The position numbers were made by a program, and so were the translations under genes. A model generated the notes under the pieces. The model did not search any database, was not told where the DNA came from, and worked only from the letters and a program-made list of their open reading frames with translations. From Eledone cirrhosa (lineage: Eukaryota), in the NCBI GenBank assembly GCA_964016885.1, contig OZ024741.1, positions 77,376,001 through 77,440,000 of the forward strand: DNA of 64,000 nt. The letters run 5' to 3'. Shown piece after piece: positions 2,726-46,620 of the stretch. Within the stretch, counting starts at the first letter, position 1, and each line of letters begins with the position of its first letter.

Positions 2726-2997
2726 TTTATAGTTATGTATATACTATAAACAACTATAAACAGGAAAGGTCAGTAATTTCCTACTACCTTATTACCAGTA
2801 AGAGAAATACCTCAATGTAAGAACATCAGGTGTTCAGTTGAATAGGAGGTTAATTATATGTACAAACATTCATATTGCTCCTATGACTCCAAACGAAAGT
2901 TTAGACGAAACGATTGTGAGTTATTAAATGATTTGAACACAATTTATATATATATATATAATATATAAGATCAAAAGATGGTTAAAAGAGTTCCATG

Positions 2998-3068
2998 TAT
3001 TTTATTATGCGCATTTCAAAAACAAATATCATCATGCAATAACATTTGTGTTTTCATCAGATAAAATA
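2998..3068 (-). ncRNA. Type I hammerhead ribozyme motif in the PLE 3' terminal repeat
   Basis: Minus strand: tattttat-CTGATGA-long stem II-GAAA-tgcgca-TA-ataaaata; 8-bp stem I, palindromic loop III. Confidence 0.85.
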
Positions 3069-3427
3069 GGAAGACATGATATGAAGGTTAAAAAACACTT
3101 GTGGATAGTGCAGTTTTAAATCAACATATGAAAAGTAGTTTTAGATTGATGTGTGGTATTGGGAAAAAAAATGTTGAGGGGTGGGTGGGGGAAAGGATGA
3201 AAAAGAGGAGGAGATGAGAGTAAAAAGTGGAGGGGGAGGAGTATAATGAGGAAGGATGAGATAGGAGGAGAGATGGGTGATAGAGAGAGAGAGATAGCTT
3301 TTATAACTGAGAAAAATATATTGTTTTACATAGAGAGGTTGAAAAACCGTTGGAAGATAATATATAAATTAAAAGAATTTGAAAATTAACGAAGAGAAAA
3401 ATAATGTAAAGTTAAGGTTTGTATATT

Positions 3428-3657
3428 GAAGGGTTTAATAATATGTGCGATGAAAAGAAATTGTTAATATGTATTAAGAATAATATTTAAGGGTTTAATA
3501 ATATGTGCGATGGAAAGAAAATGTTAATATGTATTAAGAATAATATTTAAGGGTTTAATAATATGTGCGATAGAAAGAAAATGTTAATATGTATTAAGAA
3601 TAATATTTAAGGGTTTAATAATATGTGCGATGGAAAGAAAATGTTGATATGTATTAT
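3428..3657. repeat. Four tandem copies of a ~60-bp AT-rich unit in the PLE 3' region
   Basis: aagggtttaataatatgtgcgat(g/a)gaaagaaaatgttaatatgtatta recurs at ~60-bp spacing. Confidence 0.95.
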
Positions 3658-4121
3658 TAAAAATAGCAATAGTAATGTAAGTAAGGATATATTGTGAAAG
3701 AAGTAGAAGATAGGATGAATAAGTTAATGAGCATGAATAAGTTAGATGAGCATGAAAGGGAGAAAAAATAATGAATTGAGGATGAATAATCTAACGTCAA
3801 AAAAATGTTTATGTTTACGAAGGATTTTTTCAAGGTAATATAAAGTAAGAATATATTGTACTGTGTAATAATTGTTCCTATGTTAGGCACAATGAGAAAA
3901 GGTACAGATTAGGGGTTAGAAATTAAAAGAAAAAGAAAAGAAAAGGGAAAGGAAGAAAGGGAAGTGATAAATAGGAGTGATATAGAATGAGTAACTAGTA
4001 TTATATAGTGTATAATAAATAACTTTGAAATAAGGTAGAAAGATGGGTATATTTTTAAAGAAGTATATATATATATGTGTGCCTTTGAGAAAAGGATTTT
4101 AAATTGATAAAGTATTAGATA

Positions 4122-5775
4122 TTAGCTGTATACTTTATGGAATGTTCTGTGGAATTTATGCAAGCAGAGAGAAAACAAGTCAGTGCGTCTATTTATTATA
4201 GAATCTAAATTACATATAATGGTAAATTTTTCATTTAAACAGAGATTGCATGTCTTGGATAGAGAACTGTTCAAGTATGGAGAAGCAGAAGAAACCTTTT
4301 TCCAAGAGATGTTATATTTAATATTTTTGTTTTTCAAGGACCATATGAGTTCTGAGAGTGCAGTGTTGGTTCTTTTAAGTTGGTATTTAAAAGACGAATG
4401 ATGATTATAAAGACGAGCTTTAAAGGAGGTGGAAGTGGAGCCAAAATAGGTGAAGGAATTGGTGTCAGTTATAACTTTACATTCGTAGATTAAGTTTTTT
4501 TCAAGACAATGGTTGTTGAGAGGACATTTATTTTTAACAGGGCAATTGCAATTGCGATTAGAGAGATTATTAACGAGTGACCTAGTGTTATCTATAGAAG
4601 GAATTGGATTGGAGAAGTTATTTGCGATAGGAATAATAGTTTCTTGATTTAGAATGGGATTAAGAACATTTAGCGAAGTTGTGTTTGACGTTGTATTTGG
4701 GTTTGCAGAAATTAGCCTAGAGTTTACAATGACGTCGGGAGTACTATTACTATTATTATGATGTTCAGTGTTGGAAGGAAGAGATTTAGTATTTAGTATT
4801 TTATTGTTGTGTTTAGAGATAATGTTGGAAATGTTGGAGGAGGTCGAATAGGAAAATTTTATAGTGTGTTTGTTAAATATTTTACTATAGATATGTGAGG
4901 GAGGGAAGCATTTATTTAAGGCACTAAAGAATAATTTAGGAATATTATTATTAATAGAGATGGAGAAAGGAGCATTATACCAGATTATGTTTTTGTATCT
5001 AGGTCTTTTATTAAAGTTATTGGAATGATCATGATTAATTATTCTACTGTAAGATCTTCTAGAATTTGTTTCTTTACTATATTTGATTTTATCAGGATAG
5101 CCGGCTTTAGAAAGCGCGTTATTATAGTAATTGGCGTTAGCATCAAAGATGTTTTTATTAGAAGATAGGTTATATATTCTTTTTCCAATATTACTAACTA
5201 TAGCATTCTTAATATTAGTGGGGTGGTTAGATTTAAAATTAACATAATTTAACATTGTTTTTATGGTAAGGGTAATATAGGCCAGTGTCAAGATTAAGAG
5301 ATACATCCAAGAAATTAGCTAGTTTGATGCTGTTATCAAATTCAATTTTTAAGTTATGTTGGTTAAAGAAATTACGTATATTGTTCTTAATAATATTAAG
5401 GTTAACTATGTTGCAATTTAAGATAGTAAAGAGTCCATCGTCACGATAAATTCCACTGTGAAGTTGAGGAATTTTCCGACTCAAAGAGTTCAAAATAAAG
5501 ATACCAATTAAATCTGTCAATTGGAATGAATCGGATGCTCCCATTGTGATGTCGAAGTTGTTAGAGGTATCAGCTCTGGTCCAATATTCATTGTTGAACT
5601 CTAGGATGGTTTTACGTGCGGTGAGAATGATGTGAAGTTCATCTGTGGTGATGTCAGAATATTTAAATGCGAAAGATAGAGCATTGTTGAGAAGTGAAGG
5701 CGAAATAGAAGAATAGTAGCTGGCAATATCAAATTGAACAAATTTTAGTTTGTTTTTATTATTCAATTTGTTGAA
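4122..5775 (-). pseudogene. Frameshifted PLE ORF: RT core, linker and GIY-YIG endonuclease
   Basis: FDIASYYSSI, DITMGASDS, GIYRDDG, NFLDVSLNL, then after a frameshift HPTNI, IIWYNAPFS, CNCPVKNKCPLNNHC, LIY..YFGST, CNLCLNEK, SLCLH. Confidence 0.88.
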
Positions 5776-44149: not shown

Positions 44150-44672
44150 AAGAGGGTGTTAAAGTTTGCTTGAAGCATTGTGAAATGTGTAAAAAATACG
44201 TAGTTTAGAAAGCCACAACAATGCAGAGGGAAATCTCGAGGTAGGAAGTGAATAATAGATAAGAGAAATAGGAGAAAGTGAAAATAGAGAGAGACAAAGA
44301 TGAAAACAAAACAAAGGTAGAAGGGTTACCGTAGTGGAGATTTAATCCCAATATTTCGGTCTCACGCCCATCAACGGGGGAAAGTTCCAAAGGGGGGGAA
44401 ACAGGCTAATAACGGCATTCCTGTTTTAACGACATCACAACTTTCTCCGCTTAGCCTGTTTCCCCCCCTTTGGAACTTTCCCCCGTTGATGGGCGTGAGC
44501 CCGAAATATTGGGATTAAATCTTCACTACGGTAACCCTTCTACCTTTGTTTTGTTTTCATCTTTGTCTCTCTCTATTTTCACTTTCTCCTATTTCTCTTA
44601 TTTCTCTTATCTATTATTCACTTCCTACCTCGAGATTTCCCTCTGCATTGTTGTGGCTTTCTAAACTACGTA
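44150..44672. mobile_element. Fold-back element: ~215-bp arms, 41-bp loop, ~47-bp one-sided extension, in (TA)n
   Basis: 44197-44409 versus 44451-44672; two substitutions and a 9-bp duplication distinguish the arms. Confidence 0.88.
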
Positions 44673-44895
44673 TATATATATATATATATATATATATATA
44701 TATATATATATATATATATATATATATATATATATATATATATATATATATACATATACATATACATGTATATATATATATATATATATATATATATGTA
44801 TATGTATATATATATATATATATATATATATATATATATATATATATATATATATATATATATATATATATATATATATATATATATATATATAT

Positions 44896-45700
44896 ATTAT
44901 AAGGAATTTATATCTAGTAACAATTATATACACACAGATGCATATCAATGCTAGCAAATATATAGGTTTTGTCTTATTAACAATGTGGTTCAATGCATGG
45001 GGTTGCAGAACAATAATATGAGAGTTAACTTACTTACTAAAAAATCACTTCCAACTAATTAGTTGTTTCTAATATGTTTCTTCGGAAAATATATTTACTC
45101 CATTCCAGAAACTAATTAGTTGGAAGTGATTTTTTAATAAGTTAATTTTATAATTTTCTTATTTTACGTCTCTCATATTATCGTTCTGCAACCCCATGCA
45201 TTGAACCACATTGTTAATAAGACAAAACCTATATATTTGCTAGCATTGATATGTATCTGTGTGTATATAAATGTTACTAGATATAAATTCCTTATAATTA
45301 TCTCCAATTCATTTGTCGAGCAATATTTGGCCATGACTGCTACTATGGTAGTAAGCTGGCCGCTGTCTTAATAACCACTCGCTTTCCACTGATTGACCTC
45401 GATGTCACGTGATTGATTCTTTTTGAATTTGCCACAGACGAAGAGGCAGTGATTTTCTCAATGGCTTGGAATCCAGTCCACGCTTTGCTATTTCCATTCC
45501 ACTGAATTATTTTTTTAATAAGTTTCCAGTGTCCTCGCTATGCCTGGAGACCTATACGGAAAAAGACTTTCCTGATGACGGAATGATTTTCTATATGTTT
45601 CTTCGGAAAATATATTTACTCCATTCCAGAAACTAATTAGTTGGAAGTGATTTTTTAGTAAGTAAGTTAATTTTATAATTTTCTTATTTTACGTCTCTCA
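44896..45700. mobile_element. ~523-bp unit in ~1.2 tandem copies with an inverted 5' arm; same family as 34968-35665
   Basis: atatgtttcttcggaaaat at ~45072 and ~45593; 44896-45064 is the reverse complement of ~45110-45297; CTGATGA..GAAA at 45572-45609. Confidence 0.85.
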
Positions 45701-45909
45701 TATATATATATATATATATATATATATATATATATATATATATATATATATATATATATATATATATATATATATATATATATATATATATATATATATA
45801 TATATATATATATATATATATATATATGTATATATATATATATATATATATATATATATATATATATATATATATATATATATATATATATATATATATA
45901 TACATACAT

Positions 45910-46620
45910 ATATCAAAAGTATATGTTGAGTTAAAAACTCACAATAGTCTCTCATAATTAAAATAGCTCAAGGGAAAAAAATGTTCTAACCCTTATAATA
46001 TGATTTAATATAATAAAGAGAGACAAACACAGATATATACATATATGCGTTAAAAACATAAAGGGCCTAAACCGCTAGGGTGAATAAGATACTAACTATG
46101 AACAACTTATATTAAATTATATCATAAGGTTCCGAAAAATTTTTTTCCTTGGGCTATTTTAATTATGAGGGACTATCGTGAGTATATACTTTTGATAAAC
46201 TCAACTCCTAGAATTTTGTCGAGCTTTTTACATGTCGAGTGAATCTGGCTGCTATTTTTAGTAACCTACGTTTTACAAGACACGCTACGCACTGAATACT
46301 ATGTGTGTCTTTTTCTCTCTTAAAACACGCGCTTCATTTAGTCTTCTAAGATTTTTGGGAGTGAAGGGATTAGTAATCTGTACATCCACTGAAGAACAAT
46401 CCGATTTGTAACTCTCTCCACTTTGTTTCGAAACAGTTCTACCAAAGGCTGTCTGGATGTGATAGTTATCATGATTCGGTTTGTATTGCCTAATTTATCC
46501 TTTTAATTGAGTCTGGAAAACCGTATTGTTCATAGATAGTATCTTATTCACCTTAGCGGTTTAGGTCCCTTGTGATTTGAACGCATATATGTATATATCT
46601 GTGTTTGTCTCTCTTTATTA
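45910..46620. mobile_element. ~510-bp non-coding unit with inverted, circularly permuted arm and a full hammerhead
   Basis: 46011-46094 is the reverse complement of 46537-46620, and 45911-46008 matches the reverse complement of ~46110-46197. Confidence 0.8.
46382..46460 (+). ncRNA. Type I hammerhead motif with GUC cleavage triplet
   Basis: acatcca-CTGAAGA-acaa..ttgtttc-GAAA-cagtt ctaccaa aggct-GTC-tggatgt; 7-bp stem I; base of stem II is imperfect. Confidence 0.8.

Follow-up and report, generated by a model that had tools for sequence, protein, structure and literature searches.

Penelope-like elements (PLEs) typically insert as an inverted, 5'-truncated copy with a tail on one side (PMC8557442, PMC3846280), and metazoan retrozymes have been proposed to be both derived from PLEs and mobilised by them (PMC7229834, bioRxiv 10.64898/2026.07.22.740005). 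In the portions of these sources available to us, which are what we cite here and below, it is left open how the inverted and tailed insertions of PLEs come about and by what animal retrozymes are mobilised. We analysed a 64-kb stretch of the Eledone cirrhosa genome (contig OZ024741.1, positions 77,376,001 to 77,440,000; "the window", numbered from 1), in which a preliminary description had listed eight fold-back elements, here E1 to E8. Copies in the window link retrozyme-like units to PLE integration through the shape of the insertions itself. We consider it probable that these PLE-shaped insertions into TA repeats arise from two target-primed cDNAs, one on each cut strand, which start at two fixed sites on the RNA and are then joined, and that Hydra-clade PLE proteins carry the non-coding units E7 and E8, while those of another PLE carry E3.

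The closest described elements are the Hydra-clade PLEs, which are defined by a CxCX5C linker and CxxC and CxH motifs together with the lack of a CCHH motif, and nearly all families of which target (TA)n (Craig et al. 2021, PMC8557442). E1 and E4 resemble them in the C-terminal GIY-YIG domain, the linker motifs, the lack of CCHH, the canonical hammerhead and the (TA)n target, while the tails of 30–40 bp stated there compare with 88–92 nucleotides (nt) in E1, E2 and E4. For Poseidon PAc of Anolis it was shown in vitro that the PLE protein cuts and extends both strands, with two internal reverse transcriptase (RT) starts that bound the tail; hammerhead cleavage was dispensable and a dimer was predicted (Frangieh et al. 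2024, PMC11167929). Those starts lie in an AC-rich stem loop, whereas the ends in the window overlap the TA target by 2–5 nt and lie just 5' of duplicated hairpins, and in the available text of that paper the inverted arm is not traced to two priming events. Penelope of Adineta vaga shares with the window copies inverted pseudo-long terminal repeats (pLTRs), an optional tail, palindromic junctions and pLTRs that suffice for mobilisation in trans; there, target-site duplications were reported and the inversion was attributed to self-priming (Arkhipova et al. 2013, PMC3846280). Metazoan non-LTR retrozymes are, like the units described below, short non-coding units with a type I hammerhead, arranged in tandem or permuted (Cervera and de la Pena 2020, PMC7229834; Li, Clavereau and Pollet 2026, bioRxiv 10.64898/2026.07.22.740005). 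Circles and self-cleavage have been demonstrated for the published retrozymes, while the window units are described from their sequence; the case made for PLE dependence in the retrozyme papers rests on co-occurrence, homology and RNA data, whereas the window units carry the PLE insertion signature itself.

Already published or proposed are the inverted arm with its tail, TA targeting, a pair of start sites and the dependence of retrozymes on PLEs. The single insertion rule put forward in the preliminary description is, as a structure, present in the window, and had been published as the inverted copy plus tail of PLEs (PMC8557442, PMC3846280); its non-autonomous units are supported for E3, E7 and E8, and its suggestion that retrozymes parasitise PLEs had been made before (PMC7229834, bioRxiv 10.64898/2026.07.22.740005). 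The available text of PMC8557442 yielded no twin hairpin, no obligate pairing of a short with a long end and no non-coding dependants of Hydra-clade PLEs, its supplement text containing neither "hairpin" nor "stem-loop" (0 matches each). The word "inverted" occurs 0 times in the accessible text of PMC7229834 and once in that of bioRxiv 10.64898/2026.07.22.740005, and the accessible part of PMC13282606 mentions neither "retrozyme" nor "ribozyme". Across the literature searched and the supplement texts we found no description of the twin hairpin, of an overlap with the TA target, of short ends being invariably paired with long ones or of retrozyme-like units that bear a PLE-type insertion signature.

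Anatomy of the fold-back elements

Self-comparison resolved two opposed arms, with both outer ends within TA tracts, in all eight listed elements, and one arm was longer than the other by 48–122 nt (coordinates for the arm extensions were entered by hand from the self-comparisons), in line with the ~45–120 bp given before. We refer to the end that bears this extra length as the long end and to the other as the short end. E1 (2961–5885, minus strand) is a 5'-truncated and frameshifted PLE whose main arm runs on the minus strand from 2961 to ~5778 with the short end, while the inverted arm (5774–5885, plus strand) carries an 89-nt tail; just ~23–26 nt of arm sequence are common to both. E4 (30362–33018, minus strand) is likewise a 5'-truncated PLE, with a minus-strand main arm (short end, 30362) and an inverted arm (32716–33018) that bears an 88-nt tail. 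E2 (5923–6381) consists of two terminal repeats that belong to the E4 family, both 5'-truncated, and has a 92-nt tail at the left. Tails at the left were also found in E3 (21511–22600; 61 nt), both arms of which measure ~550 nt, in E5 (33805–34525; 59 nt), in E6 (44151–44670; 48 nt, with a 41-nt spacer) and in E8 (45914–46618; 99 nt), the main arm of which (46107–46618) is one unit long. E7 (44898–45699) has a main arm at 45066–45699 with the short end and an inverted arm at 44898–45064 with the long end and a 122-nt tail.

All eight listed elements are real, and the list had missed further copies of the same build, namely two small fold-backs of the E3 family: one at 20770–21030, whose left, short end runs into a CA-type repeat and whose right end is a long end, and one at 30105–30302, which shares both its long and its short end with E3. 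Several other insertions in the window depart from the rule as first worded, being single arms or having main arms that carry the tail.

Inversions of this kind could be assembly chimeras, or replication fold-backs from self-complementary (TA)n. This would fit the palindromic nature of (TA)n and a mirror at 43650–43867 that is centred on a TA tract, and no public contig spans an entire element. However, the centres of symmetry lie inside the elements, the arms differ by 0–14% plus indels, the end points repeat across copies and public contigs, and a contig of set X4 and a locus from another genome (L006, below) show separate fold-backs, so that we regard an artefact as very improbable.

Fixed ends, their pairing and the TA overlap

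The ends recur within each family: they are the same in E2 and E4, in E3 and its two small relatives, in E7 and a single arm of its subfamily (E5b, 34968–35662, plus strand, short end as in E7), and in E5, a single long-end arm flanked by TA tracts (43890–44077, minus strand) and a coding PLE at 22763–23928 (minus strand, 5'-truncated), whose long end is identical to that of E5. Among public contigs, 10 of set X1 and 1 of set X4 have (AT)n after the short end of E7, and 2 of set X1 have it after the long end. Arm offsets that are random across the genome had been named as a result that would speak against a shared rule; within the window the ends are fixed for each family.

In the window, every two-armed copy of these families (ten out of ten) combines a short end with a long one, which by simple arithmetic would be expected with a probability of ~0.001 if each end were chosen independently and equally. 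The metagenome locus L006, from another genome, has the same short-plus-long build. It is the short-end arm that clearly reaches further upstream in 6 of the 8 listed elements.

The continuation of the element beyond its end overlaps the TA target by at least 2 nt at 8 of 11 sites in a strict count (summed overlap 26 versus 11.4, P 0.009), which is too low at three sites with nearby substitutions. A mismatch-tolerant count, with the short end of E3 taken from the 30105 copy, gave overlap at 10 of 11 sites (0 of 10^6 simulations) and is too high at E1 and E4. The overlaps are 2–5 nt long, and 17–29% per site would be expected by chance.

Apart from these families, two single arms between microsatellites, at 21062–21281 (plus strand) and ~48993–49148 (minus strand), have a Hydra-type hairpin ~100 and 65 nt before their ends, respectively, and are likely the long-end arms of two more families.

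A predicted twin hairpin beyond the ends

A conserved motif of the form GCTC-N-GAGCAC, 20–25 nt long and predicted to form an RNA hairpin, lies ~1–9 nt beyond each end in Hydra-clade PLEs and E7, against a background of 0.52 motifs per kb per strand; Hydra PLEs of other genomes have two copies of it in each element. Among 79 Hydra-type loci drawn from metagenome contigs, 49 have a type I hammerhead; 63 segments downstream of hammerheads contained 56 hairpin matches, 39 of them between +39 and +58 from the predicted cut and 16 between +105 and +126. In several of the loci whose sequence continues, an ATG follows the second hairpin. When copies were compared with a longer relative, 13 of 23 comparisons diverged 1–9 nt before a hairpin, mostly into TA-type repeats, and the two ends of L006, a complete asymmetric fold-back, precede hairpin 1 by 3 nt and hairpin 2 by 4 nt.

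In the window, hairpin 1 of E1 (5804–5830, plus strand, ACTC..GAGT) stands directly beyond the short-end site, and it shares with hairpin 1 of E2 (6007, minus strand) and of E4 (32938) a paired change from G-C to A-U. E7 has the motif directly beyond both end sites (hairpin 1 at 45183–45206 and hairpin 2 at 45301–45321, plus strand), as does E5b (35143 and 35259), and the first hairpin of the two carries a C-G to U-A change, which in E7 gives the paired form GTTC..GAAC. E8 has a Hydra-type hairpin at 46204, beyond the long-end site only.

More fold-backs were seen among the metagenome loci at L017 690–930 and L071 1–774; in L017 an inverted arm ending in (TA)n adjoins both hairpins as well as a hammerhead. 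The sequence that follows the long end of E3 (22241–22262) resembles, by eye, that after the short site of the coding PLE at 22763–23928 (22763–22822), and this likeness could possibly reflect a second type of start signal.

Coding elements

The translated RT and endonuclease (EN) of E1 match 25 homologues, while E4 retains the thumb and EN part only; in both, RT is followed by a C-terminal GIY-YIG-type endonuclease. Alignment of E1 and E4 revealed the CxCX5C linker and CxxC and CxH motifs flanking a conserved E and N, with no CCHH, and both elements carry a canonical hammerhead and sit in (TA)n. Pfam returned no match for the reading frames of E1 and E4, so their assignment rests on homologues and motifs. 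Since both are 5'-truncated, N-terminal motifs were read from homologues: DKT is present in P0006, P0023 and P0025, and RWK in P0025. On homologues and motifs, E1 and E4 are Hydra-clade PLEs, which upholds the earlier view of them as coding GIY-YIG PLEs.

The translation of 22763–23928 has a CX4CxxC linker, within the CX2-5CxxC pattern, and a CCHH GIY-YIG domain, for which Pfam gave an E-value of 1.5e-4, slightly below the curated cut-off. Judged by these motifs, the element is a PLE of either Neptune or Nematis type (below, Neptune/Nematis type).

A third Hydra-type PLE, with a CxCX5C linker and a degenerate hammerhead, was found at 28842–29688. Its minus-strand main arm ends in (TA)n beyond a hairpin 1, and an upstream piece of its open reading frame is inverted without overlap, an arrangement that we take to resemble what is called twin priming in L1. 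Beside the Neptune/Nematis-type PLE, a patchwork at 23929–24105 joins 71 nt inverted from the PLE's own EN region (100% identical), ~55–60 nt of the E3 hammerhead (95%) and 52 nt of a LINE-like element at 12025–12076 (98%), followed by (AGA)n. The patchwork could be due either to RNA-to-RNA template switching, which would link E3 to the Neptune/Nematis-type PLE, or to templated filler from repair.

Closed non-coding units

Units that close on themselves were seen in E3 (418 nt), E7 (525 nt) and E8 (~511 nt), which agrees with the tandem or permuted units of ~419, ~525 and ~510 bp noted before. E5b, 80% identical to E7, comprises one unit of ~529 nt plus 166 nt. No stop-free frame in E3, E7 or E8 exceeds 82 codons; these elements, together with E5b, are short non-coding units in tandem or permuted form and have type I hammerheads by descriptor (that of E8 being undetected by Rfam). 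As far as their sequences go, only E3, E7 (with E5b) and E8 of the eight elements are closed, retrozyme-like non-coding units. E2 represents the terminal repeat of a coding family, that of E4 (91%). The last 77 nt of E5 are 84% identical to the Neptune/Nematis-type PLE, with the long end and part of the hammerhead in common, and self-comparison disclosed no unit closure in E5 or E6. Thus none of E2, E5 and E6 shows a closed non-coding unit separate from a coding PLE. Between families there is no significant sequence similarity, except for E2 with E4 and E5 with the 22763 element. The set of non-autonomous ribozyme units proposed earlier is therefore narrowed to E3, E7 and E8, E2 being a terminal repeat of E4, E5 having a PLE-related end and E6 lacking both closure and a canonical hammerhead.

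The preliminary description had named, as an outcome that would overturn it, that all units prove to be plain terminal repeats of coding PLEs; this holds for E2 and not for E3, E7 or E8. The broader alternative is that the non-coding units have no mobility of their own: they would be parts of coding PLEs, either their terminal repeats or local tandem duplications, and would be copied only as truncated parental ends. That is true of E2 and plausible for E5 and E6, and retrozyme units do resemble PLE terminal repeats (bioRxiv 10.64898/2026.07.22.740005). Against it, E3, E7, E5b and E8 close within 418–529 nt, with the short frames of E3, E7 and E8 given above, the closed unit is kept by two E7 subfamilies that are 80% alike, and closure is seen again among public contigs, where 1836 of set X1 together cover the E7 unit end to end and the unit closes on itself in both X1 and X4 (we did not take summed contig depth for a copy number). 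For E3, E7 and E8 we find this alternative rather improbable and prefer to see them as units in their own right.

Three further observations were given no part in this argument. Molecule ends in restriction-site-associated (RAD-seq) data fall at or near AATT, and were read as restriction ends and set aside. An X4 contig in which the strand changes at the predicted cut site of E7 (45642) is a single case and received no weight. We also rejected the main arm of E8, which is exactly one unit long, as proof of a circular template, given that this is one of five unit-spanning arms and would occur by chance with an estimated ~12%.

Motifs resembling promoter elements occur in some of these copies (34180–34250, 23070–23115, 29020–29032 and 45396–45418): E5 and its relative have GCGCATGCGC and AAGATGGCG-like motifs, and E7 has an E-box-like TCACGTGA, which lies within a peak of contig depth. 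We take these to correspond to NRF1, YY1 and USF sites, and their presence suggests internal RNA polymerase II promoters.

Predicted hammerhead ribozymes

With a type I hammerhead descriptor, for which the core had to be canonical and all three stems present, we obtained 13 matches in the window and 0 in each of 20 shuffled sequences. A first, stricter version had matched only E1, E2 and E4 because it disallowed an unpaired base at stem II, which is reported to be typical for PLE hammerheads. The matches cover E1, E2, E3, E4, E7 and E8. E1 has its hammerhead at 2998–3068 on the minus strand, with the core at 3060, a palindromic stem III and a predicted cut after 3006; cores were also located at 6113 (minus) and 6283 (plus) in E2, 21809 (minus) and 22360 (plus) in E3, 23011 in the Neptune/Nematis-type PLE, 30460 (minus) and 32832 (plus) in E4, 35007 and 35536 in E5b, 45572 in E7 (predicted cut after 45642) and 46389 in E8, where stem III is complete and a GUC is present. 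The core of E5 at 34286 passed only with stem I relaxed to 2 bp, and E6 gave no match at any stringency tier, its sole candidate by eye, near 44486 (plus), deviating at three core positions. A hammerhead core had been claimed for every element, which stands for seven of the eight, E5 only with the relaxed stem, and fails for E6, which has no canonical core. Rfam reported no hammerhead for E8 or E5, and in a search of the whole window none was present among the 150 of 287 matches listed, where microsatellite-like miRNA models dominate. Complete hammerheads in two consecutive units, which Li et al. take as a sign of activity, occur in E5b (35007, 35536), while the arms of E3, E7 and E8 have one each.

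A PLE-like remnant at 37704–38739 has a hammerhead variant at 38185 (minus strand, one core change, GUC) and contains an old tail arm of the E4 family at 38582–38727.

Probable priming on both strands

Integration through two target-primed cDNAs would begin with the GIY-YIG domain of a dimeric PLE protein cutting both (TA)n strands. Each target 3' end would then pair with UA or AU just 5' of a hairpin, which would position the RT; one subunit would use hairpin 1, giving the short end and usually the longer cDNA, and the other would use hairpin 2, giving the long end with its tail. The two cDNA 3' ends would be joined by microhomology (junction overlaps of ~4–5 nt were read by eye at the arm joins of E1, E3 and E7), and units that retain the hairpins would be copied in trans. 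The two priming events postulated in the preliminary description find support in the tail of E1, E4 and E5, which is absent from the main arm, so that a second template copy or cDNA is needed, and in the extension of both strands from two sites by a PLE protein in vitro (PMC11167929).

Alternatively, there could be one priming event, with a single cDNA or tandem intermediate folding back or being copied and the GIY-YIG endonuclease cutting element DNA at TA beside the motif, which would then be a DNA site and not an RNA hairpin. Craig et al. ascribed the tail to EN-mediated resolution (PMC8557442), Frangieh et al. cite recognition of the D. virilis tail by EN (PMC11167929), and palindromic junctions were read as self-priming by Arkhipova et al. 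(PMC3846280); in the window, E2, E6 and the 30105–30302 copy have near-palindromic centres, and TA at the ends would suit an AT-cutting nuclease as well as it suits priming. At the same time, a fold-back of one cDNA cannot provide the tail of E1, E4 and E5, RT starts in vitro map to the ends of the tail (PMC11167929), and the spacer of the motif ranges from ~10 to 20 nt with paired changes, which is better suited to an RNA stem than to a fixed DNA site. We consider a single priming event unlikely and favour two target-primed cDNAs.

With regard to the template, the arms cross the predicted cut site, and hammerhead cleavage is therefore unnecessary for copying. The arms of E3, E7 and E5b also exceed one unit, from which it follows that the template would be either an uncut tandem read-through RNA or a re-ligated circle; the data fit both alike.

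More specifically, and more tentatively, we propose that the duplicated hairpin of Hydra-clade PLEs sets the two RT starts, the dimer using one per cut strand in every two-armed insertion through 2–5 nt of TA pairing, and that retrozymes like E7 parasitise the enzyme by keeping both hairpins; the chances of this being correct may be somewhat below even. If true, a single cis-acting signal would account for the PLE tail, the inverted arm and the mobilisation of retrozymes together. The 20–25 nt twin hairpin offers a concrete mutational target for an in vitro test of the mechanism, and genome writing would benefit from a portable start signal for an RT-endonuclease that targets microsatellites.

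A number of points weigh against these proposals. The end and pairing counts rest on one window and short public contigs, and the 79 metagenome loci include near-duplicates. The remaining 10 of the 23 comparisons diverged 12–33 nt before a hairpin, mostly against distant relatives, and no Hydra hairpin was found at the ends of E3, E5 and E6 or at the short end of E8. The relaxed motif was widened once E7 had been seen; the hairpins of alignment A2 were chosen for pairing, which makes its figure of 98% paired circular, and the 6 double changes in hairpins probably represent two events. E2 and E6 are ties as to which arm reaches further upstream, the main arm carries the tail at 22763–23928 and 28842–29688, and at least four insertions are one-armed (34968–35662, 43890–44077, 21062–21281 and ~48993–49148). 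E7 may have a coding partner, 448 loose contig ends lying beyond those listed. Finally, Anolis Poseidon starts at sites that are not homologous to the target (PMC11167929), unlike the overlaps seen here.

Other repeats in the window

ARAGORN found no tRNA in the window. An inverted element at 42105–43867, between TA tracts, has a one-sided extension of ~300 nt and neither an open reading frame nor a complete hammerhead; 43833–43867 mirrors its end across a TA tract. A short, abundant repeat at 36093–36569, with copies near 25013, 34861, 40338, 58625, 59060 and 59883 and, by eye, A/B-box-like motifs, is likely a short interspersed nuclear element (SINE), and at 36108–36569 two copies of it stand head to head between TA tracts. 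A LINE-like RT fragment that ends in (AAT)n is present as two inverted 1.6-kb copies, 98.5% identical, at 1105–2685 and 15935–17516.

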